A stretch of DNA of 64,000 nucleotides from an uncultured bacterium. GTDB lineage: Bacteria; Patescibacteriota; Minisyncoccia; UBA6257; GWB1-50-10. How positions within the stretch are numbered: position 1 is the first letter of the stretch; each line of letters opens with the position of its first letter. Both the position numbers and the translations under genes were made by a program. Positions 3,836 to 62,720 of this stretch are shown one piece after another. Below the pieces are notes generated by a model, which saw only the letters and a list, made by a program, of their open reading frames with translations, ran no database searches and was not told the DNA's origin. The stretch is taken from assembly GCA_963713955.1 (NCBI GenBank), contig OY970216.1, forward strand, positions 72,075 through 136,074, in the 5' to 3' direction.

Positions 3836-4177
3836 GGGGGCGCAAGCTTCGACAGGAAAGATCTTTAAAAGTAGCAGGCCGAGGAGCGATGAACTCGTAA
3901 AACCGTCGCAAACTAAGAACTGCCAACAATAAAGTTGCAGCCCCGGCATTGGCTTTCGCTTAATACCGGCCCCGACTTAATTTAAGCCGGGCATCGGTCC
4001 TTGACTCCCGCTAAAGGTCAACCGGTGTCATACTGCGGGATACGTCCGCTAAAAGGGCTTTCAATAAAAACGGACCAAATCCATCGGAAGCAAAACCGCC
4101 TTCATTAAATTGGAGACTAAGCTTGTAGAATACTTTTGAATAATTTCTTGGACGAGGGTCCAATCCCTCCGCCTCCA
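3836..4177 (+). ncRNA. ssrA: tmRNA (ssrA), ~342 nt; CCA not encoded
   Basis: The gene starts at the base after the smpB stop. The 5' sequence GGGGGCG-CAAGC-TTCGACAGG matches the tmRNA acceptor and UUCGAC(G/A)GG hallmark. The internal stretch GGCCGAGGAGCGATGAACTCGTAAAACCGTCGCAAAC is near-identical to E. coli GCCGAGGGGCGGUUGGCCUCGUAAAAAGCCGCAAAC, which lies upstream of the tag. A tag-like reading frame GCC AAC AAT AAA GTT GCA GCC CCG GCA TTG GCT TTC GCT TAA gives ANNKVAAPALAFA*. The 3' tRNA-like domain has a T-arm GAGGG-TCCAAT-CCCTC at 4155-4169, then the acceptor strand CGCCTCC at 4170-4176, which pairs with 5' GGGGGCG over 7 bp including one G-U, then discriminator A at 4177. Confidence 0.8.
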
Positions 4178-4178
4178 C

Positions 4179-4222
4179 AATTAAAAATACCGGCATTCAT
4201 TGCCGGTATTTTTAATTGCTTG
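4179..4222 (+). terminator. Intrinsic terminator of ssrA
   Basis: A perfect 17-bp hairpin, AATTAAAAATACCGGCA / TGCCGGTATTTTTAATT, with loop TTCAT. The 3' arm runs into a T-rich tail, TATTTTTAATTG. Confidence 0.6.
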
Positions 4223-15089: not shown

Positions 15090-15252
15090 TTAAAGCTATC
15101 GTGGTAGTCTGGCTTTTGCTAATAAGCACTTCTTGTCTTGGTAAAAGCCAGATTGGCACAAAAACAAAAAGATCATTCAAAAACTTTCCGCTGTGGGTCG
15201 TCAAAGAAGCTGATCTGGTAACCCAAAACAGCGGAAACAAAAGGAGTTATGT

Positions 15253-16434
15253 ATGAAAAAGTTAGTTGCTTTTCTCGTCCCCTTGGCGATAGCGACCGTC
15301 GTGACGATTGTCGTTAAAGCACAGGGTACCTATTCTCCGCAGGATAGCTCGTACCTCGAGCAGTTCCGCGGGGAACCGGCGTCGAAAATCGTGCCACAAG
15401 TATGGCTCGACGAATGCAGGCTAAACCGCATACGATACCCGGACAGCAATATGGTCCGCGCAGGCGACACTCTCCTTCTACCTACCAACAAACGGTACAT
15501 CGTGGAAGGCAATCAAGGATCAGACCATATGTGGAGAGCGGCAATGTCCTTCGCGCAAAACACGGTGCTACCCTACTTAAACCATCACCAGAATGTGGTA
15601 TCCACGGTCGCAAACACCTCCAAAACCGCGATACTAGACCCGATTTTATTTTGGTTTCTGATAGCGGCGGTTCTACTCATTCTACTCGTAATGCTCTGGT
15701 TCATTCGGAAAAACCTTCTCGACCGCAGACATCCTTTTGTCGCGCGGCAAAATATCCCAGACTTCGAAAACGCCTCGGATGAAGAGGTTGAAGAAGTCGT
15801 GGAGAATGCGCTGAGACAGATCTACGGACGAAACTTTGAAATTGTAGGTCCTATCCAGAGAGGGTACATCGACGGCACAATGACAAGCTTCTTTGCCAAC
15901 GGATCGCAGCGGAATGAAGAGTTCCATGACGAGCCGGGATTCAGAGCTCGCCTCCGTTTCAACGATAGGCATGAGAGACTTGTTGTCTCCCGCTGGTCCT
16001 GCTTCAACCCCTGCTGGACAGCTCAAGACGCTCAGTTCAGCGGCACCTTCACACCGGTAGACGAAATGCACCCCCAAAGGATTGATAGGATCACGAACGA
16101 GGAGTTGGGTGACCTGACTCAAAACATAAGGCGCACCAATCGCGGAGAAGAACCGGCGGTGGATCCAATACCCCCTGCGGAACCTAAGGAAGAAGCAAGG
16201 GTAGAGGGGAGGCCAGGGCAAGAACCTAAACCCGAATCCCAAAAGGAAACTCCTGCTCCAGCTGTCGAGAAGACGGAAGAGGGGAAGCTGCACTTCACAA
16301 AGGTGCAGATCAGCAATGAAAAAGGATTGAATCTTGAAGGCAACTTTGACCTCACGCCGAAGGAACTTCAAGAGCTTATCACTCGAGTCACCTCCCCAGG
16401 AAAGACGGGAGAGGGGGAAGAGAAAGATAAGTAA
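15253..16434 (+). CDS. Secreted/membrane protein with an N-terminal LysM-like segment and a Pro/Glu-rich C-terminal tail
   Basis: 393 aa. There is a signal peptide MKKLVAFLVPLAIATVV, a LysM-like element ...MVRAGDTLLLP, an internal TM LIAAVLLILLVMLWFI, and a low-complexity EPKEE/PKPES tail. Confidence 0.55.
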   Translation: MKKLVAFLVPLAIATVVTIVVKAQGTYSPQDSSYLEQFRGEPASKIVPQVWLDECRLNRIRYPDSNMVRAGDTLLLPTNKRYIVEGNQGSDHMWRAAMSFAQNTVLPYLNHHQNVVSTVANTSKTAILDPILFWFLIAAVLLILLVMLWFIRKNLLDRRHPFVARQNIPDFENASDEEVEEVVENALRQIYGRNFEIVGPIQRGYIDGTMTSFFANGSQRNEEFHDEPGFRARLRFNDRHERLVVSRWSCFNPCWTAQDAQFSGTFTPVDEMHPQRIDRITNEELGDLTQNIRRTNRGEEPAVDPIPPAEPKEEARVEGRPGQEPKPESQKETPAPAVEKTEEGKLHFTKVQISNEKGLNLEGNFDLTPKELQELITRVTSPGKTGEGEEKDK

Positions 16435-16446
16435 AAGTTACACCCA

Positions 16447-16474
16447 GGCCTTGCGAAGATTTACTCGCAAGGCC
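16447..16474 (+). terminator. Hairpin terminator after the 15253 gene
   Basis: GGCCTTGCGA-AGATTTACT-CGCAAGGCC: a 10-bp stem with a weak U-tract. Confidence 0.5.
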
Positions 16475-16654
16475 CGTGCTCATTTATGGGATATCTTTCG
16501 CGCTTAATGGCACGTTCTTTAATCGTCCGCGCGGAGCGAAGCCATTGGTTTGGTGAGGCTAAATTCGATACGGCGGTTTTTCAGAAAGAGGTTCGGGCCA
16601 AAGATTTTTTGAGAGAGGGGCTTTTGTTCATATATCATAATACTTTTATAGGTA

Positions 16655-18743: not shown

Positions 18744-18815
18744 TGCGCCCACGGGGAATCGAACCTCGATTTTATCCTTCGGAGGGATACGCTCTATCCG
18801 TTGAGCTATGGGCGC
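18744..18815 (-). tRNA. tRNA-Arg (anticodon CCG)
   Basis: The reverse complement GCGCCCATAGCTCAACGGATAGAGCGTATCCCTCCGAAGGATAAAATCGAGGTTCGATTCCCCGTGGGCGCA folds as a cloverleaf. The 7-bp acceptor is GCGCCCA/TGGGCGC, the D-arm is GCTC...GAGC, the anticodon stem is TATCC/GGATA with loop CTCCGAA, and the T-loop is TTCGATT. CCA is not encoded. Confidence 0.85.
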
Positions 18816-20118
18816 TCACACCCATGATGATACCGAGGGTAAGCCAAAACATCAACTCTCCCGACTCCAGGTCCCAAAAGAAATGATCCACGAGGCCGAA
18901 GAGAAGCCACGAGAGACCGATCACGAGCGGGAAGAATAGATCGAGACCGGCCTCGTTTTTCCTTTCACTCCAGAACTCTCTGGCGATGGGCCAGAAAACG
19001 TTCCAGAGAAAAATCACGAACAAAACAAGGCCAATGACACCGGTCTCCGCGGCGACCATGAGGTACAAGTTATGGACGGGCTGCCATTCCCAGTCCTGCT
19101 TTAACCCTTCGCCTTGGTACAGACCGGCGTTCAAACCGGCGATGATCTGGTTTCCCGGCCCCACGCCGAAAACGGGGTTCGCCTTCACGAGGTTGAGTGC
19201 GATAAGCCCGTAATCTATCCGATACGTCACGGATGGCTCGTCCGGCGAGAAGCTGTCTCGCGCCGTCGACAAACGGCCAAACCCCAAAATGACGAAGAGA
19301 ATGAATAAGACGAGAATGCCCACGAGCGACAGTGTCCTCTTTCTTAAAAATCCGGCCGAGATGCCATAAACCGCCGTCGCCACTGCGAAGAACGCGAAAA
19401 CGATGAATCCGGATCTCGAGAACGTGAGAATGAGGGCCGAGAATATCAAAAACATGCCGGCGATGACGGCGAACTTCGTGACTTTGCTCCCAGACATAAA
19501 ATCCTCTCTCAGGAACAAATAGGCAAGCCCCGCAAACCCAAAGACAAGAAAGGCCGCCAGGATGTTCGCGTGCGGCATTGTGCCGTAGACTCTGAGAAAC
19601 GTTCCGAAATCGGTGAAGACCCTTGCGATGCCCGACGTCGCCGGACCGAGAACCGATTCCCCGAGCAACTTGAGTCCAATGCTCCCCTGATTCCTGAACT
19701 GGAGAAGGCCGACGATTGCTTGAAAAACCGCGGAGGCGCCGATGACGGCAAAAACGTTTTTCAGCTTCAGACGCCCCTCCCTCAAAAGCGAGGCGAAGAC
19801 GAGAGAAAATAAACCAAAAAGGACGAGGTGAGCGAAGACGTAAAAAGCGAGGCCAGGGCTGAAAGAAAGAAAAGAAGAGACAAGACTAACGACGAGGAAC
19901 AAGAAGAGAATCGTCGATTGCTTGCCGAGATGTATTTTTTCAAGATTCAGGACGACGGCGAGCGCGAGAAGGATATCAAGAGCATAAATAAAAACGGATC
20001 CGTAGGATATTTGGATGTTGAACGGCAGGGAGAAGGAGTAAATGAATTTCTTGGTGCCGATCGGGACGAGGAACAGGATCAGGAAAAAAAGCAGCTTATT
20101 AAACTTCGACATAGGCAA
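18772..20118 (-). CDS. O-antigen ligase / Wzy-like polytopic membrane protein
   Basis: 448 aa with 10 or more TM helices and a large periplasmic loop, which is the pattern of the O-antigen ligase (Wzy_C) family. The last ~15 codons read into tRNA-Arg, so the true stop may be assigned differently. Confidence 0.6.
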   Translation of the reverse strand: MPMSKFNKLLFFLILFLVPIGTKKFIYSFSLPFNIQISYGSVFIYALDILLALAVVLNLEKIHLGKQSTILFLFLVVSLVSSFLSFSPGLAFYVFAHLVLFGLFSLVFASLLREGRLKLKNVFAVIGASAVFQAIVGLLQFRNQGSIGLKLLGESVLGPATSGIARVFTDFGTFLRVYGTMPHANILAAFLVFGFAGLAYLFLREDFMSGSKVTKFAVIAGMFLIFSALILTFSRSGFIVFAFFAVATAVYGISAGFLRKRTLSLVGILVLFILFVILGFGRLSTARDSFSPDEPSVTYRIDYGLIALNLVKANPVFGVGPGNQIIAGLNAGLYQGEGLKQDWEWQPVHNLYLMVAAETGVIGLVLFVIFLWNVFWPIAREFWSERKNEAGLDLFFPLVIGLSWLLFGLVDHFFWDLESGELMFWLTLGIIMGVSAHSSTDRAYPSEG

Positions 20119-20183: not shown

Positions 20184-20270
20184 GAGTGAGGCGCGGTGAG
20201 GCGAAAAAGTGTGCGCTCCGGGGCGCTAGCCCAAGTCTTACCCACTTTTTCGCCTCACCGCGCCTCACTC
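20184..20270. repeat. Palindromic repeat element, copy 1 (core plus 28-bp inverted arms)
   Basis: GAGTGAGGCGCGGTGAGGCGAAAAAGTG-[TGCGCTCCGGGGCGCTAGCCCAAGTCTTACC]-CACTTTTTCGCCTCACCGCGCCTCACTC. Related copies are at 38190, 61066 and 62213. Confidence 0.8.
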
Positions 20271-20283
20271 GACACCCGCAACC

Positions 20284-20553
20284 TCAAACCAAATAAACCC
20301 TGTCCCCGTCCCGCGCCTTGTCTTTTACCTTGATGCCCACCTCTTCGCCAGGTCCGGCCTTCTCGACCGAATCGTGCTCTACCTGCATTGACTGCACGGT
20401 ATCCTCGAAATCGGTGGTCGCCCCCACGATCTTTATCCGGTCGCCGACATGGAGCGTGCCGCTCAACTTTATCGCCGCGACGCCGATGTGGCCGAAATAA
20501 TGGCTTACCACGCCGACCTTCTCGGCTTTTTCCTTGGCATTTTCGCTGGCCAT
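20284..20553 (-). CDS. Small beta-barrel protein resembling EF-Tu domain 2 (89 aa)
   Basis: MASENAKEKAEKVGVVSHYFGHIGVAAIKLSGTLHVGDRIKIVGATTDFEDTVQSMQVEHDSVEKAGPGEEVGIKVKDKARDGDRVYLV. The GDxIxIxG...GxGxxVGIKV pattern matches the translation-factor beta-barrel fold. Confidence 0.5.
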   Translation of the reverse strand: MASENAKEKAEKVGVVSHYFGHIGVAAIKLSGTLHVGDRIKIVGATTDFEDTVQSMQVEHDSVEKAGPGEEVGIKVKDKARDGDRVYLV

Positions 20554-38066: not shown

Positions 38067-38297
38067 GGGTTTGCTTTCTTAAGGGAATGAAAACCTTATG
38101 ACAATGATAAAGGTATTTCGAAAAGTTGCAACATCGATTCTCACGGCTGCTGTGGTTTAACTGTGGACGGGGTGTTGATAATTTATGACGAGTCTCGGTG
38201 AGGCGAAAAAGTGGGTAAGACTTGGGCTAGCGCCCCGGAGCGCACACTTTTTCGCCTCACCGAGACTCTTCCTTTGGTGTGAGAGTGATGGTACAAT
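38067..38297. promoter_or_regulatory. dnaA-rpmH divergent intergenic region; candidate oriC portion and divergent promoters
   Basis: The dnaA(-)/rpmH-rnpA-yidC-jag(+) arrangement is classical. Imperfect DnaA-box-like sequences occur (TGTGGTTTA, TGTGGACGG). The region contains copy 2 of the palindromic repeat. Confidence 0.4.
38190..38268. repeat. Palindromic repeat element, copy 2 (core inverted relative to copy 1)
   Basis: GAGTCTCGGTGAGGCGAAAAAGTG-[GGTAAGACTTGGGCTAGCGCCCCGGAGCGCA]-CACTTTTTCGCCTCACCGAGACTC. Confidence 0.8.
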
Positions 38298-38432
38298 ATG
38301 AAAATGTCGAGAACATACCAGCCAAAGAAGAAGAAGAGGGCAAGAACCCACGGTTTTTTGAGAAGAGCGAAGAAAAACCCCCACATCCTGAAGAGTAGAA
38401 GGAGGAAGGGGAGAAAGAGGCTCTCGGTATAA
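38298..38432 (+). CDS. rpmH: Ribosomal protein L34
   Basis: MKMSRTYQPKKKKRARTHGFLRRAKKNPHILKSRRRKGRKRLSV, 44 aa, and below the ORF-track cutoff. Confidence 0.9.
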   Translation: MKMSRTYQPKKKKRARTHGFLRRAKKNPHILKSRRRKGRKRLSV

Positions 38433-54146: not shown

Positions 54147-55679
54147 TTACTCTTCTTTGATTCTGTACTGAAACGCTTCGGCGAGGTGCGATACGGTGAC
54201 TTCCGGGGAATTTTCCAGGTCGGCGATGGTTTGAGCAACCTTGAGCGTCCGATAGTATCCTCTCGCCGATATGAGGTTTTTGTCCATCACCTCTTTCAAA
54301 AATTCCTCGGCTGATTTTCCCATCTTTATGACTTCGTCGGCCTCTCTTGAGTTCATTTCCGAATTTGTGTAAATCTCCGCGTTCAGTTTTACGAACCTCT
54401 CCTTTTGGATGTTTCTTGCGGCCGATACCTTCCCTCTCGTGCCGTCGTCACCCGTTTTTACGGCGGACATAAGTTCCCCGCTCTTTACCCTTGGGACGCT
54501 CGCTTGAATGTCTATCCGATCGAGGAGCGGCCCCGACAGTTTCTTGTGGTATCTGAAAACTTCGTTCGCGGTGCAAACACACTCTTTCTTGGGATCTCCG
54601 AAATAGCCGCAGGGGCAGGGATTTTTGGCTGCGACGAGCATGAAGCGGGCCGGATACTCGACCACCTTCTTGGCTCTCGACACGGTTACTCTTCCGCTTT
54701 CAATGGGTTGTCGCAGGGCCTCAAGGACGTCGCGGTGGAATTCCGGCAGTTCGTCAAGGAAAAGGACCCCCCGGTGAGCCAGGCTTATCTCGCCTGGTCT
54801 TGGGTTTTGCCCGCCCCCCACGATGGCTATGAGAGAAGAAGTGTGGTGGGGCGATCTCGTGGGTCTCGAGCTTACTGAATGTATTCCCTCGGTCAGGAGT
54901 CCGGCAGCGCTCCAAATCTCTGTCATCTCTATGATCTCCTCATAGGACGGCGGCGGAAGGATCGACGCGAGAGCTTCGGCGAGCATGGTCTTCCCGGTAC
55001 CCGGGGGGCCGGACAACAAAACGTTGTGCCCGCCGGCGGCCGCTATAGTGAGCGCTCTCTTGGCTGCCGCTTGGCCCTTGACGTCCCAGAGATTTATGCG
55101 TGCCTTCGGCGGGGCATCGCCGACGATTGTTTTCGGTTGCGCCTTTATTTTTCTGAACCCTTCCAGGTGTTCCATAATCTCCGCGAGGCTCCCGACAGGC
55201 ATTATTTTTAAATCCTCCACCATCGCCGCTTCCTCGGCGTTTTCTTTCGGCAGAAAAAACTCCCGGAACCCTTTCCTCTTTGCGGATACGGCCATGTTCA
55301 AGGCACCGCTGATCGGCCGGAGCGTGCCGTCGAGGGAGAGCTCTCCGGCAAACATCTTTCTTCCGCTTTCAAACTCGGCTATCTGTTCGCTCGCGAGGAG
55401 ATAAGAAAGGGCTATCGGCAGGTCAAAATGCGATCCGATTTTTTTGACGTCGGCTGGCGCAAGGTTAATGGTTATCTTCCGGTTTTCTTTGGTGGGAGGT
55501 TTGATACCCGAGTTTTTGAGGGCCGAATTGACCCTTTCTTTGGCTTCGGAAACGGCCTTATCGGCCAGTCCCACGATGTTGAAGGAGTGGAGGCCGACGT
55601 TCAAATCGGCCTCCACTTCGATGAGGTCGGCGTTTATTCCTTCCAATTCCGCGGAGAAAAGTTTTGGAACCCGAAGCAT
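54147..55679 (-). CDS. comM: Mg-chelatase-like AAA+ protein YifB/ComM
   Basis: 510 aa with an N-terminal Lon-like ChlI domain, Walker A GPPGTGKTMLA, and the C-terminal Mg_chelatase_C. Confidence 0.85.
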   Translation of the reverse strand: MLRVPKLFSAELEGINADLIEVEADLNVGLHSFNIVGLADKAVSEAKERVNSALKNSGIKPPTKENRKITINLAPADVKKIGSHFDLPIALSYLLASEQIAEFESGRKMFAGELSLDGTLRPISGALNMAVSAKRKGFREFFLPKENAEEAAMVEDLKIMPVGSLAEIMEHLEGFRKIKAQPKTIVGDAPPKARINLWDVKGQAAAKRALTIAAAGGHNVLLSGPPGTGKTMLAEALASILPPPSYEEIIEMTEIWSAAGLLTEGIHSVSSRPTRSPHHTSSLIAIVGGGQNPRPGEISLAHRGVLFLDELPEFHRDVLEALRQPIESGRVTVSRAKKVVEYPARFMLVAAKNPCPCGYFGDPKKECVCTANEVFRYHKKLSGPLLDRIDIQASVPRVKSGELMSAVKTGDDGTRGKVSAARNIQKERFVKLNAEIYTNSEMNSREADEVIKMGKSAEEFLKEVMDKNLISARGYYRTLKVAQTIADLENSPEVTVSHLAEAFQYRIKEE

Positions 55680-60171: not shown

Positions 60172-61056
60172 ATGACTGAGATTGAAAAGTATTTGAAGGA
60201 ATATCTGGATTATCTGGAGATTGAAAAGAACCGGTCGCGGAAGACGCGGGAGAACTACGAACGGTATCTGAAACTTTTCGTGAAACAGACGGGCGTCAAG
60301 TCCCCTCTCGGCATAAACGAAGATGTCGTGAGGGATTTTCGGTTAGAGCTTAACCGGCGCGGTATCAAGAAAATAACCCAGGGGTACTATGTGATCGCGC
60401 TCAGGAATTTTTTGAAGTATTTGGTAAGGAGGAAATTAAAGGTGCTTTCGCCGGACATGATAGAACTCCCGAAAGTAACCCGGGCTGACATCGAGGTTTT
60501 GAGCTATGAAGAGCTCGAGCGGCTCCTCGCGGCCCCGAAGGGAGACAGTCTGCGCGTCTTGAGGGACAAAGCGATCCTCGAGACGTTTTTCTCGACCGGT
60601 CTCCGGCTTTCAGAACTCTGCAATCTCACTCGGTTCGTCGATCTGAAGCGCGGCGAGATATCGGTTCGCGGCAAGGGAGACAAAATACGGGTCGTCTTTC
60701 TATCGGATGACGCCAAAGACGCGATAAACGGGTATCTGAAAAAAAGGCAGGACGCCCTGGAGCCGCTTTTCGTGAGCTTGGACAAGAAAGAGAAAACCAT
60801 CGGGAAAATCACGCCGCGGAGCGTAGAAAGACTGGTCTCTTTTTATGCGCGGAAAGCGGGCATCCCGAAAAAAGTCCATCCCCATCTCTTGCGTCATTCT
60901 TTTGCCACAGACCTTTTGATAAACGGTGCGGACCTGCGTTCCGTCCAGGCAATGCTCGGTCACGCGAACATCTCGACGACCCAAATCTATACCCACCTCA
61001 CGAACAGGGAACTCAAGGAAGTCCACGAAGCGTTCCACGGAAAGAGGAGAAAATGA
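60172..61056 (+). CDS. xerD: Tyrosine site-specific recombinase XerC/XerD
   Basis: 294 aa. An N-terminal SAM-like domain is followed by a catalytic domain with R...HxxR (HLLRHSFAT) and a catalytic Y in ISTTQIYTHL. Confidence 0.85.
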   Translation: MTEIEKYLKEYLDYLEIEKNRSRKTRENYERYLKLFVKQTGVKSPLGINEDVVRDFRLELNRRGIKKITQGYYVIALRNFLKYLVRRKLKVLSPDMIELPKVTRADIEVLSYEELERLLAAPKGDSLRVLRDKAILETFFSTGLRLSELCNLTRFVDLKRGEISVRGKGDKIRVVFLSDDAKDAINGYLKKRQDALEPLFVSLDKKEKTIGKITPRSVERLVSFYARKAGIPKKVHPHLLRHSFATDLLINGADLRSVQAMLGHANISTTQIYTHLTNRELKEVHEAFHGKRRK

Positions 61057-61065
61057 ACGGCAGTC

Positions 61066-61134
61066 TTGGTAAGCCGAAAAAGTGTGCGCTCCGGGGCGCT
61101 AGCCCAAGTCTTACCCACTTTTTCGTCTTACCAA
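61066..61134. repeat. Palindromic repeat element, copy 3
   Basis: TTGGTAAGCCGAAAAAGTG-[TGCGCTCCGGGGCGCTAGCCCAAGTCTTACC]-CACTTTTTCGTCTTACCAA. The arms differ from copy 1 by paired compensatory changes. It sits between convergent xerD and the PAP2 gene, whose stop codon lies inside the element. Confidence 0.8.
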
Positions 61135-62183
61135 CCCCGCCTTCTGAAGAGTAGGTTAACAAGGAACACCGCGACGATTCCCATTATGATGCCTGCCGGT
61201 GCGTCGACGAAGTAGTGCTGGGCGAGATAGAACGTACCGAATGTCGAGAGGATAAGGAAAGGAGCGAAAAATGCCGCCACAACCGGCACGGCCTCAACGA
61301 GATAAATGAAGGCAATCGCCGCCCATGCTGCGTGAGCGCTGGGGAAGGTCGTCGTCGGTGCGACATCCAGGTCCTTTTTTATATCTCTCACTTTCGAAAA
61401 AAAGTTTTTCATTTCTGGGATGGGGGGAAAGCTTTTTAGAGCCGAAGAAACATTTGGCGGATCGGGAAGGTTGTAGACGTTGTCGATGAATCGGTCTTGG
61501 GGACTCATGGCAGGCACGAGGAGCCATAGAGGAATCATGATGAGAATGCTTAAAATGAAGGCTAGGGCGTATTGGGAGAAAACCTTCTTACTTTTGAAGA
61601 AGATGATGATGGCCGATATGAGGAGGATCGATGTGAGATTCAGAAACGAGAACTCGACCGTTTTTACGAACCAGATCGGCGGATTCGCCATCGCGAAGTG
61701 AATGAAAGGGTATGCGCCCGTAAGCCAGAAATCCGCCGCGAGAAGCTTCAAGTCGATAAGTCGGTTCTTATTGAATACGTCGATGAATTCTATGAGATAC
61801 GATATGAGAAAGAAATTGAGGACGATTGGAATCGTGATCCTCACACCTAGGGCAAGTTCCCTCAGGGACTTTTTTATTTCATCCTCGAAATGCTTGAGAG
61901 GCATTTTTTCTTCGAGCTCTCTCCTATTAAACCTAACCATGAGAAGATTCACGATGAGGTACACGCCGAGAGCCGCGTAGGCTATCCAGAGAATCTCGCT
62001 CCCCCAATATCTCAGCTCCCCGAAAACGAACCCCGTGTAGAACACGAAAAAGTTTTCTTTCGGTGGAGGAAGCACGTTCGAGAAATTGAGATAAAGAACA
62101 ATCGGCGCGAGAATGAGCGCTAGAAGATAGAAAATCTTTTCTGTCTTTCTCAAAATTCTTATGTCTTCAAGTTTCTGGTTCAT
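61128..62183 (-). CDS. PAP2-superfamily membrane phosphatase
   Basis: 351 aa, polytopic, with the C-terminal PAP2 motif ...TFPSAHAAWAA.... Confidence 0.7.
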   Translation of the reverse strand: MNQKLEDIRILRKTEKIFYLLALILAPIVLYLNFSNVLPPPKENFFVFYTGFVFGELRYWGSEILWIAYAALGVYLIVNLLMVRFNRRELEEKMPLKHFEDEIKKSLRELALGVRITIPIVLNFFLISYLIEFIDVFNKNRLIDLKLLAADFWLTGAYPFIHFAMANPPIWFVKTVEFSFLNLTSILLISAIIIFFKSKKVFSQYALAFILSILIMIPLWLLVPAMSPQDRFIDNVYNLPDPPNVSSALKSFPPIPEMKNFFSKVRDIKKDLDVAPTTTFPSAHAAWAAIAFIYLVEAVPVVAAFFAPFLILSTFGTFYLAQHYFVDAPAGIIMGIVAVFLVNLLFRRRGW

Positions 62184-62212
62184 GGCTTATCCGCGAATTG
62201 CGACAGCCGATG

Positions 62213-62288
62213 CTCGGCAAGCCGAAAAAGTGTGCGCTAGGGCCGCGCTTGCCAAGCCTTACCCACTTTTTCGTCTCACCGAGCCTCG
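62213..62288. repeat. Palindromic repeat element, copy 4 (diverged core)
   Basis: CTCGGCAAGCCGAAAAAGTG-[TGCGCTAGGGCCGCGCTTGCCAAGCCTTACC]-CACTTTTTCGTCTCACCGAGCCTCG. Confidence 0.7.
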
Positions 62289-62720
62289 TCTTGATATGCT
62301 TTTTCGTCTGGTGAAAAGTTTTAATAGTATGCTCGTATGATATTTTTCCGGTTCATGAGGCTTAAGTTTTATTATTTCCGGCACCGGATCGAATTCGTTA
62401 AGGTGCAACCTCAAATCCGCTTCCAACGCTCCCTGATCGTACCCGATCGCGATTGTGTCCGGGCGTTCGTTTTTTGCCGACTGCCAGGTTCCGAGCTTGG
62501 TGTCTCCGGGAGCGACTCGGTCCACGGCACCGGATGACAGGAGCGCTCGAGAACGCTCTGCGAAATCGGCATGGGGCTTATGCCCCTTCAGTTTCTCAAC
62601 AACTGCGTCCTGTGCCAAGACAGCGACGAGCTCGTCGCCGAATCTCCTCGCTTGTTCCAGGAACTTGCGATGACCTTCGTGCAATTCATCAAACACCCCG
62701 AAAACCAAAACTTTTTTCAT
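62259..62720 (-). CDS. Cytidylyltransferase-like nucleotidyltransferase (HxGH family)
   Basis: I place the start at MKKVLVFG (62720), which has the motif VFGVFDELHEGH (GxFDxxHxGH). The track ORF runs on through the tRNA-Leu gene. The C-terminal ~10 codons are supplied by repeat copy 4. Confidence 0.7.
   Translation of the reverse strand: MKKVLVFGVFDELHEGHRKFLEQARRFGDELVAVLAQDAVVEKLKGHKPHADFAERSRALLSSGAVDRVAPGDTKLGTWQSAKNERPDTIAIGYDQGALEADLRLHLNEFDPVPEIIKLKPHEPEKYHTSILLKLFTRRKSISRRGSVRRKSG

Follow-up and report, generated by a model that had tools for sequence, protein, structure and literature searches.

Several described systems resemble the element reported here. The REP and BIME elements of proteobacteria, which are associated with RAYT transposases (Y1 HUH enzymes whose genes are typically flanked by REPs), are short hairpins dispersed between genes; a REP unit of 20–40 nt has a variable loop on a stem of conserved sequence, next to a GTAG tetranucleotide. 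MITEs retain the conserved terminal inverted repeats of a parent IS and are flanked by target-site duplications. ERIC (IRU) and Correia/NEMIS elements are imperfect palindromes of approximately 100–150 nt in transcribed spacers that keep terminal inverted repeats and make TA target duplications, and they reportedly affect mRNA in an orientation-dependent way. Hairpins at gene 3′ ends are also found as attC sites, which lie in arrays next to intI and attI, and as intrinsic (Rho-independent) terminators, GC-rich hairpins with a small loop that directly follow stop codons and lead straight into a U-tract. The ssoA single-strand origins of rolling-circle plasmids are long strand-specific hairpins with an RSB site and with the CS-6 motif TAGCGT in the loop.

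Patescibacteria (CPR) have tiny genomes, and their non-coding DNA is little known. We analysed a 64-kb stretch of DNA (the window, meaning all 64,000 nucleotides) from an uncultured bacterium whose DnaA is 69–84% identical to proteins named Patescibacteria group, Minisyncoccia, Paceibacterota or Jorgensenbacteria. It carries a hairpin element of unusual design, with an invariant tip, a stem that is free in sequence but paired, a fixed folding strand, and better conservation than the essential genes beside it. An earlier note on this DNA had proposed a four-copy family with a core identical in copies 1–3, inverted in copy 2 and diverged in copy 4. All four copies lie where they had been reported or within a few bases, copies 3 and 4 being wider than described, and a repeat finder recovers the same pattern of cores. 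A covariance model run with filters off and every position scored finds exactly four copies in the window, with scores of 100, 100, 94 and 69 bits for copies 1 to 4 (E values 1e-24 to 1e-15). Each is a long inverted repeat enclosing a 31-nt non-palindromic core, and the repeat finder pairs the arms over 26–28 nt at 82–100% complementarity. Every copy folds better than its shuffles on both strands (z −3.3 to −10.7), and the similarity and folding of the four are far beyond chance. The two strands of an element are distinguished as the T orientation, which reads TGCGCTCC...CTTACC, and its complement, the G orientation, which reads GGTAAGACTTGG...GGAGCGCA. The features in the window are as follows.

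20184..20270, minus strand: copy 1, full hairpin; the G strand is the minus strand; 28-nt arms, 100% complementary; 100.2 bits
20209..20245, minus strand: apical module of copy 1, consisting of GUG, the 31-nt core and CAC
38190..38268, plus strand: copy 2, full hairpin; the G strand is the plus strand; extendable to 38187–38271 at 96%; 100 bits
38211..38247, plus strand: apical module of copy 2
61055..61144, minus strand (G strand): copy 3, full hairpin; 93.7 bits
61082..61118, minus strand: apical module of copy 3
62205..62291, minus strand (G strand): copy 4, full hairpin with a degenerate apical motif; 69.4 bits
62230..62266, minus strand: apical module of copy 4, diverged

Copy 1 lies 14 nt downstream of an 89-aa, EF-Tu-domain-2-like gene (20284–20553, minus strand) and upstream of a Wzy_C gene. 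Its outer arms carry a symmetric duplication of GTGAGGCG, present in both arms. Copy 2 occupies the dnaA-rpmH spacer, flanked toward dnaA by a DnaA-box cluster and the dnaA promoter and toward rpmH by the rpmH −10 box. Copy 3 lies between a convergent XerC/D-like recombinase gene (stop at 61056) and a PAP2 gene, whose TAA stop codon (61128–61130) falls inside the 5′ arm of the element, in arm GGTAAGACG. Copy 4 lies between the PAP2 gene and a cytidylyltransferase-like gene, and the nucleotidyltransferase ORF ends at the UAA of the copy 4 core (GGGUAAGG). Copy 4 is a sister copy of copy 3, with which it has an A·G arm mismatch in common, and its apical motif has CUAG in place of GGAG. The gene contexts, including the two stop codons within copies 3 and 4, had been read correctly from the start.

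The surroundings of copies 3 and 4 suggest an integron- or attC-like single-stranded site for a tyrosine recombinase, with the PAP2 gene between the two copies, near the XerC/D-like gene, as a cassette. Copy 3 abuts this Phage_integrase-family gene, copies 3 and 4 flank a single gene in the same orientation, and the element resembles attC in forming a hairpin at gene 3′ ends with variable paired arms and a folding strand usually antisense to the upstream gene. However, it is the tip and not the stem base that is conserved, the alignment contains no R″/R′ GTTRRRY boxes, and copies are dispersed by syntenic core genes (ligA, dnaE, gyrB, dnaA) without arrays. In the window, moreover, PAP2 is encoded in the same sense as the folding strand, the recombinase gene is convergent and not promoter-proximal, and other loci show no integrase with their copies. 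We regard this as the least probable of the explanations considered. The recombinase gene itself (60172–61056, plus strand) ends 2 nt inside the base of copy 3.

Other features of the window were recorded alongside the four copies. A tmRNA gene lies at 3836–4180 (plus strand, 124.6 bits) and a tRNA gene at 18744–18815 (minus strand). The latter overlaps the listed Wzy_C ORF (18772–20118), whose true end probably differs. Weak model matches of 9–13 bits that lack the core, at 4176–4220 (following the tmRNA gene), 15096–15164, 16434–16487 and 55576–55627, are probably ordinary terminators. A public contig from a related assembly of the same species (L163) starts inside copy 4, which occupies its positions 1–43; the repeat thus breaks short-read assemblies.

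The dispersed family extends well beyond the window, with approximately 60 further copies in Patescibacteria (CPR) genome and metagenome contigs. A first genome scan with the loose palindromic pattern CGAAAAAGTGN{20,45}CACTTTTTCG returned 111 loci, 106 of them unrelated hairpins and five of them true relatives, from MAGs labelled Minisyncoccia or just 'bacterium'. A core-anchored pattern retrieved 50 metagenome stretches, mostly from Hainich groundwater (0.1 µm fraction) and peat. The phage, plasmid and IMG/VR collections held no copy, and eight viral pattern matches failed the covariance model. At gathering thresholds, Rfam 15 recognised in the window only the tmRNA and one tRNA, while E-value scans with the whole element, the tip alone and subfamily B gave generic miRNA-hairpin matches or nothing. 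A literature search that included literal sequences found nothing relevant to the element. The family is thus apparently undescribed, being absent from Rfam 15 and from the literature searched. Two unrelated high-copy palindromic families were also caught, solely via a common 10-nt arm, CGAAAAAGTG. One is from a gut MAG (HRGM_Genome_1129; L007, L016, L018 and others), reads ...GTGGCTTGTCAATTTCTATCAATTGACAAGCCAC... and has at least 25 copies; the other is from the Chloroflexia MFD01299 (L022, L025, L034 and others) and reads ...GTGATGATTTTGCGGGCTTTGCCCGCAAAATCATCAC...

A unit is approximately 85–100 nt long. Its tip is a 37-nt asymmetric apical module, GUGGGUAAGACUUGGSCUAGCGSCCCGGAGCGCACAC, which is nearly invariant among 54 distinct copies, as are the A5 and U5 tracts beside it. 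Below the module, the stem of 20–30 bp is hypervariable in sequence yet complementary throughout the family; the rest of each arm (17–43 nt) is almost wholly different among lineages and still paired, with 5′ and 3′ lengths equal within 1–3 nt over that whole range. Diverged subfamilies, likewise picked up in the same contigs by the covariance model, are without A5/U5 and GUG/CAC and have instead a tandem G·A step and a covarying P2 helix (GGGGU/ACCCC, AGGCU/AGCCU and GGG/CCC among subfamilies). The apical parts are the short helix P2, an internal loop UAAGA/AG(C/A), and a helix P3 with conserved U·G and U·C oppositions, closed by an unconserved terminal loop (UAGC, AAGC, GUC, or expanded as in L145 and L174). 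Only ...UAAGAC-UUGGSC-loop-GSCC(C/U)GGAG... is common to all subfamilies, which would place the functional heart in P2, the internal loop and P3, excluding the terminal loop. The UAAGA internal loop may be T-loop-like and may resemble J11/12 of RNase P. On our own inspection, a kink-turn reading of the internal loop does not fit the register.

The stem is maintained by paired changes. Standard pairs occupy 93.3% of alignment cells compared with 78.6% in column shuffles, and double changes occur in 21 of 32 pairs; one pair, for example, is AU in 20 copies, CG in 17, UA in 11 and UG in 4. In the small apical helix, the S-S pair is G-C in 35 copies and C-G in 19. The covariation score is 0.441, against 0.158 in shuffles and at most 0.089 in slid registers, and none of 500 shuffles reached the observed value on any of the five measures, although part of the signal may reflect hairpin-templated DNA correction. 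The fold is therefore supported beyond both kinds of control. Compensatory arm changes had been claimed from the window copies, where the evidence is thin: the arms of copies 1 and 3 differ at one truly compensatory position, G-C to A-T, and at a second position, where a G to C change opposite C to T leaves an uncompensated mismatch. The claim holds through the double substitutions that abound in the ~60 copies outside the window, which alone provide strong evidence for compensation. The further claim that selection acts on structure is likely correct, but covariation alone is no proof of selection at the RNA level, since symmetric indels such as the arm duplication of copy 1 show that hairpin-templated DNA correction contributes.

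In its extreme form, this process would maintain the palindrome by mutation alone, with intrastrand template switching copying one arm to the other and everything except the core being neutral junk. The symmetric multi-base duplication in both arms of copy 1, the arm lengths that change together and the existence of mosaic copies all speak for such a process. It predicts perfect complements without strand bias, however, and the mismatches in the family are strongly polarised. Ungapped stems read in the T orientation contain 37 A·C and only 5 G·T oppositions, and in the aligned structure the G orientation has 86 G·U/U·G against 17 A·C/C·A. Known mutational asymmetries of transcription and replication would be expected to produce the opposite sign or none, and template switching leaves the invariant core unexplained. 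Maintenance by mutation alone is thus improbable.

The strand bias is also evident in folding energies. With the core swapped for a neutral tetraloop, the G strand gives the more stable arms in 44 of 54 copies and the T strand does so in 3 of 54 (mean ΔΔG −5.9 kcal/mol, Wilcoxon p = 4e-9), and the apical module is compact on the G strand only. The bias is −6.2 kcal/mol where the adjacent gene is on the T strand (n = 26) and −5.8 kcal/mol where it is on the G strand (n = 6), and it is also seen in the diverged variants. Being equal in both gene contexts, it is a property of the element and not of host transcription: what is constrained is specifically the G strand, as set by the way the core is oriented. 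We also considered, and rejected, replication-oriented insertion or a mutation bias, as orientations are mixed within contigs and inconsistent across the two sides of dnaA.

We next consider the genes beside the elements. The elements are intergenic, and as a rule a real gene terminates close by, its stop codon −20 to +11 nt from the base of the stem. In 26 copies only the T strand carries an adjacent gene; in 6 only the G strand does, in 8 both do and in 14 neither does; diverged variants add 10 and 2 to the first two classes, giving 36 and 8. The well-folding strand is usually antisense to the abutted gene. The window is an exception, with copies 1, 3 and 4 G-sense. The adjacent genes are varied housekeeping genes, encoding GyrB, DnaE, UvrA, UvrB, LigA, SMC, LepA, SerRS, TruB, Nfo, RF, peptidases and others. 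Approximately 30% act on DNA (DnaE, GyrB, UvrA, UvrB, LigA, SMC, Nfo, a T4SS coupling protein, DnaA and XerC/D), as counted in L121, L124, L126, L129, L132, L134, L141, L146 and L157 together with dnaA and the XerC/D gene of the window. This association is above our expectation and non-exclusive, and gene length may be its cause. A DNA-metabolism regulon was entertained when the ten largest neighbours proved to be mostly GyrB, DnaE, UvrA, UvrB, LigA and SMC, and was dropped when the next twenty were ordinary housekeeping genes, leaving a weak enrichment. The element-adjacent GyrB gene of L129 (5390–8641, minus strand) holds an intein, its Intein_splicing domain lying between the GyrB and Toprim domains.

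A position at stop codons is what an ordinary intrinsic terminator would occupy, possibly a bidirectional one, with a loop sequence shared by chance. The hairpins are very stable, they lie after stop codons and before the next promoter, A5 and U5 tracts flank the apical module, and the ligA-gatC spacer discussed below has no other terminator. The element is nevertheless not a canonical terminator, because no U-tract follows the full hairpin. In the two directions, 17% and 15% of copies have a T-run of at least four close to the 3′ end of the stem, compared with a background of 12%, and a consensus terminator scan does not call the elements. Canonical terminators with a GC stem and a T-run do occur in the same contigs, in some cases immediately beside an element (L122, L128, L152 and L175). 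Copy 2 sits between two divergent promoters. A terminator would also leave unexplained why the 37-nt tip is invariant and why the strand opposite the mRNA folds better. The terminator modules suggested in the earlier note are therefore very unlikely.

The same note had offered sRNA modules as an alternative, and independently transcribed small RNA genes would indeed account for a conserved, covarying, structured core and for strand-specific folding. The AT-rich spacer 5′ of the G strand contains a −10-like hexamer directed into the element in 50% of copies, compared with 18% of background. These boxes show no positional peak or preferred distance, however, and a self-contained sRNA gene is unlikely with a promoter at no fixed distance. 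There is likewise no terminator; copies overlap stop codons, are present or absent and decay, and occur many to a genome with different stems. We consider a small RNA gene family slightly more probable than an intrinsic terminator, and less so than a palindrome kept by mutation.

Copies come and go among related genomes. Orthologous spacers are found both with and without the element, and no replacement hairpin is present where it is absent. A subfamily-B copy of L121, for example, is missing from the orthologous spacer of L154. The truB-nfo spacer has a copy in L150 and in L128, in opposite orientations, at different offsets and with different arms, and none in L141; L141 in turn has a copy elsewhere that L150 is without. 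Copy density differs too, with 1 copy in 85 kb of relatives compared with 4 in 74 kb here. Copy 4 and a copy at 15652–15740 of L176 are decayed.

Copy 2 is similarly lineage-specific. Its position in the dnaA-rpmH region had been reported correctly, yet it is missing from this spacer in five syntenic relatives (L172–L176; DnaA 71–84% identical). Copy 2 is an insertion beside the DnaA boxes, not a component of the origin. The spacer (38104–38306) contains a dnaA promoter, TTGCAA-16-TATCAT, at 38131–38104 on the minus strand, and DnaA-box-like repeats TGTGGTTTA, TGTGGACGG and TGTTGATAA at 38152–38181, a cluster of the TTATCAACA type. On the rpmH side, an extended −10 box, TGgTACAAT, lies at 38289–38297. 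As this is only ~7 nt before the second ATG (38304), rpmH is probably leaderless, with a protein start of MSRTYQP. The GC-skew minimum is at about 36–38 kb of the window. Between 21000 and 60000, most genes on both sides point toward the dnaA-rpmH locus, except for the dnaA-dnaN and rpmH-rnpA-yidC-jag operons, and would be head-on to forks leaving it. The five relatives have the same gene layout, with a T4SS-like cluster (PrgI, TraC/VirB4, TraG and T4SS pilin) adjoining.

The copies are also mosaic. Copies 1 and 2 share 73 identical inner nucleotides and differ in their outer arms, and copies 2 and 4 have the outer arm GACGAG(T/G)CTCGG in common. Together with the symmetric indels, this mosaicism points to exchange of segments between copies and to hairpin-templated DNA correction. 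Some outer arms resemble an A-tract, GC stem and T-tract, which raised the idea of insertion into pre-existing terminator hairpins. This idea was rejected on the basis of empty orthologous sites, including the copy 2 site, that have no hairpin, and of the outer arms common to copies 2 and 4.

A mobilising activity was sought in several ways. No direct target-site duplication is visible by eye around the four window copies and none is consistent in the flanks of 54 copies, while the empty-site alignments are too diverged to give exact junctions. No transposase, RAYT, reverse transcriptase or other mobilising gene was found next to any copy, and when approximate sequences of IS608 TnpA and the E. 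coli RAYT were compared by tblastn with element-bearing loci totalling ~0.55 Mb, the one match, to PilT, was false. The duplications and the transposase that would mark a transposable family thus did not appear in the sequence covered. Copy orientations are mixed within single contigs, which does not fit the replication-oriented insertion of IS200/IS605-type single-stranded DNA transposons.

Where copies remain in place, they are conserved in a distinctive way. Four genomes (L123, L134, L146 and L157) carry the element in the same orientation between ligA and the conserved TATATAAT promoter of gatC. The cores of these copies are 97–100% identical, their arms 35–63% and the coding flanks 48–71%. 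Such a pattern is hard to explain for dead copies: either the resident copies are under selection or their cores are continually renewed from other copies. In the same four genomes, a conserved (T/G)ATATAAT box stands 8–10 nt before the gatC start codon, which suggests that the gatC leader is very short or absent, as for rpmH and nfo.

One reading of this conservation is that purifying selection maintains the apical module at every resident copy as a functional structured motif, which acts on the strand antisense to the abutted gene and belongs to a new class of factor-recognised element. This reading would fit a module that in resident copies has changed less than the ligA, gatC and dnaE coding sequence beside it, and we regard it as possible although rather unlikely. 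It could take two forms. The module may be an RNA that insulates genes from antisense or read-through transcription where genomes are very compact and promoters leaderless, or the folding G-strand form may be a cDNA or ssDNA copy made from host sense transcripts.

The first form can be elaborated as a host-functional structured G-strand RNA, a gene-boundary insulator that would stop or process G-direction transcripts and protect the 3′ end of the adjacent gene. Its targets would be read-through from the upstream gene or divergent or antisense transcription from the next promoter, and its apical module would serve to bring in an RNase, a termination factor or a similar protein. Such a role is consistent with cores that at orthologous sites are more conserved than neighbouring essential genes, with the preference of the G strand in folding, and with the closeness of the stem base to the stop codon of a gene on the other strand (−20 to +11 nt). 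The 5′ side of the G strand faces the next promoter, as with the gatC box, and is enriched in −10-like hexamers, though this enrichment may merely reflect AT-rich spacers. The module of subfamily A has a terminator-like A5-hairpin-U5 arrangement that is more compact in the G direction, and the invariant U·G pairs and tandem G·A are motifs of an RNA type. Against an insulator, the promoter is at no fixed distance, the full hairpin has no U-tract after it, A5/U5 are absent from subfamilies B and C, and orthologous spacers that lack the element manage without a replacement hairpin. We judge the insulator unlikely, if well ahead of the terminator and sRNA accounts.

Our first-ranked explanation, held tentatively and at a little below even confidence, is that the family consists of Patescibacteria-specific, non-autonomous proliferating hairpin repeats of a new REP/ERIC-like class. 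A host-level G-strand RNA at gene boundaries ranks second, and the terminator, sRNA, attC-like and mutational accounts rank lower. New copies arise in intergenic spacers, directly at stop codons; others decay or disappear, and segments are exchanged among copies. Under the repeat explanation, the stem would be free to change in sequence provided that pairing stays, and would carry a compact, nearly invariant apical module whose internal loop is recognised by a putative trans-acting factor. Given that the constraint is on the G strand and tied to core orientation, the element would work single-stranded, as RNA or as ssDNA of G polarity. Selection could account for the orientation bias if copies were tolerated mainly where the well-folding strand stays out of the mRNA of the upstream gene.

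Two kinds of observation weigh against this explanation. No mobilising gene was found beside any copy, and no target-site duplication was seen. The ligA-gatC pattern, moreover, points to purifying selection on each resident copy, and thus to a host-level function in place of a purely selfish repeat, which would need recurrent gene conversion because the core was kept while arms and flanks diverged. That the folding strand so often runs against the adjacent gene is a concrete, testable puzzle. The family also offers a handle on a putative nucleic-acid-binding activity in uncultured organisms and a marker for strain-level genome dynamics.

Comparison with known systems places the element near several of them. 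It is like REP and BIME elements in being short, dispersed and intergenic, in forming hairpins at gene ends in either orientation, and in varying in copy number among relatives. That resemblance, and the one to MITEs, had been anticipated, and the intergenic position against gene ends and the gain, loss and decay among relatives agree with it. The architecture is reversed, however, since here a 37-nt tip is conserved and a 20–30 bp stem is hypervariable. No RAYT was found in the element-bearing loci searched, and there are no BIME-like clusters. With respect to MITEs, the outermost 6–12 bp are the part that differs most, no parent IS is seen, and the flanks of 54 copies hold no consistent direct repeat. 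ERIC and Correia/NEMIS elements are alike in being imperfect palindromes of transcribed spacers that are conserved across species despite differing positions and are present or absent at orthologous sites; they have no sequence similarity to the element, in which the termini are least conserved and no duplication is seen.

Among the structure-defined hairpins, attC sites are similar in that one strand folds, usually antisense to the upstream gene. They conserve the stem base (R and L boxes, extrahelical bases) and vary at the tip, whereas the element does the reverse, has no RYYYAAC...GTTRRRY boxes and is dispersed among core genes. Intrinsic terminators share the stable hairpin right after stop codons, and subfamily A has A and U tracts beside its apical module; unlike them, the element has no U-tract behind the hairpin, its loop is large and conserved, and one copy is flanked by divergent promoters. 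As in ssoA, TAGCG occupies the terminal loop of many copies, but here the loop is the least conserved part of the tip, no plasmid matches, and the element is chromosomal and multi-copy. Failing the defining features of REP, MITE, attC, terminators and every Rfam family tested, the element is a member of no named family and is filed under the palindromic-repeat kind. It combines the generic mark of a mobile or proliferating repeat, namely presence or absence at orthologous sites with a lineage-varying copy number, with that of a structured single-stranded element, covariation beyond shuffled and slid controls.
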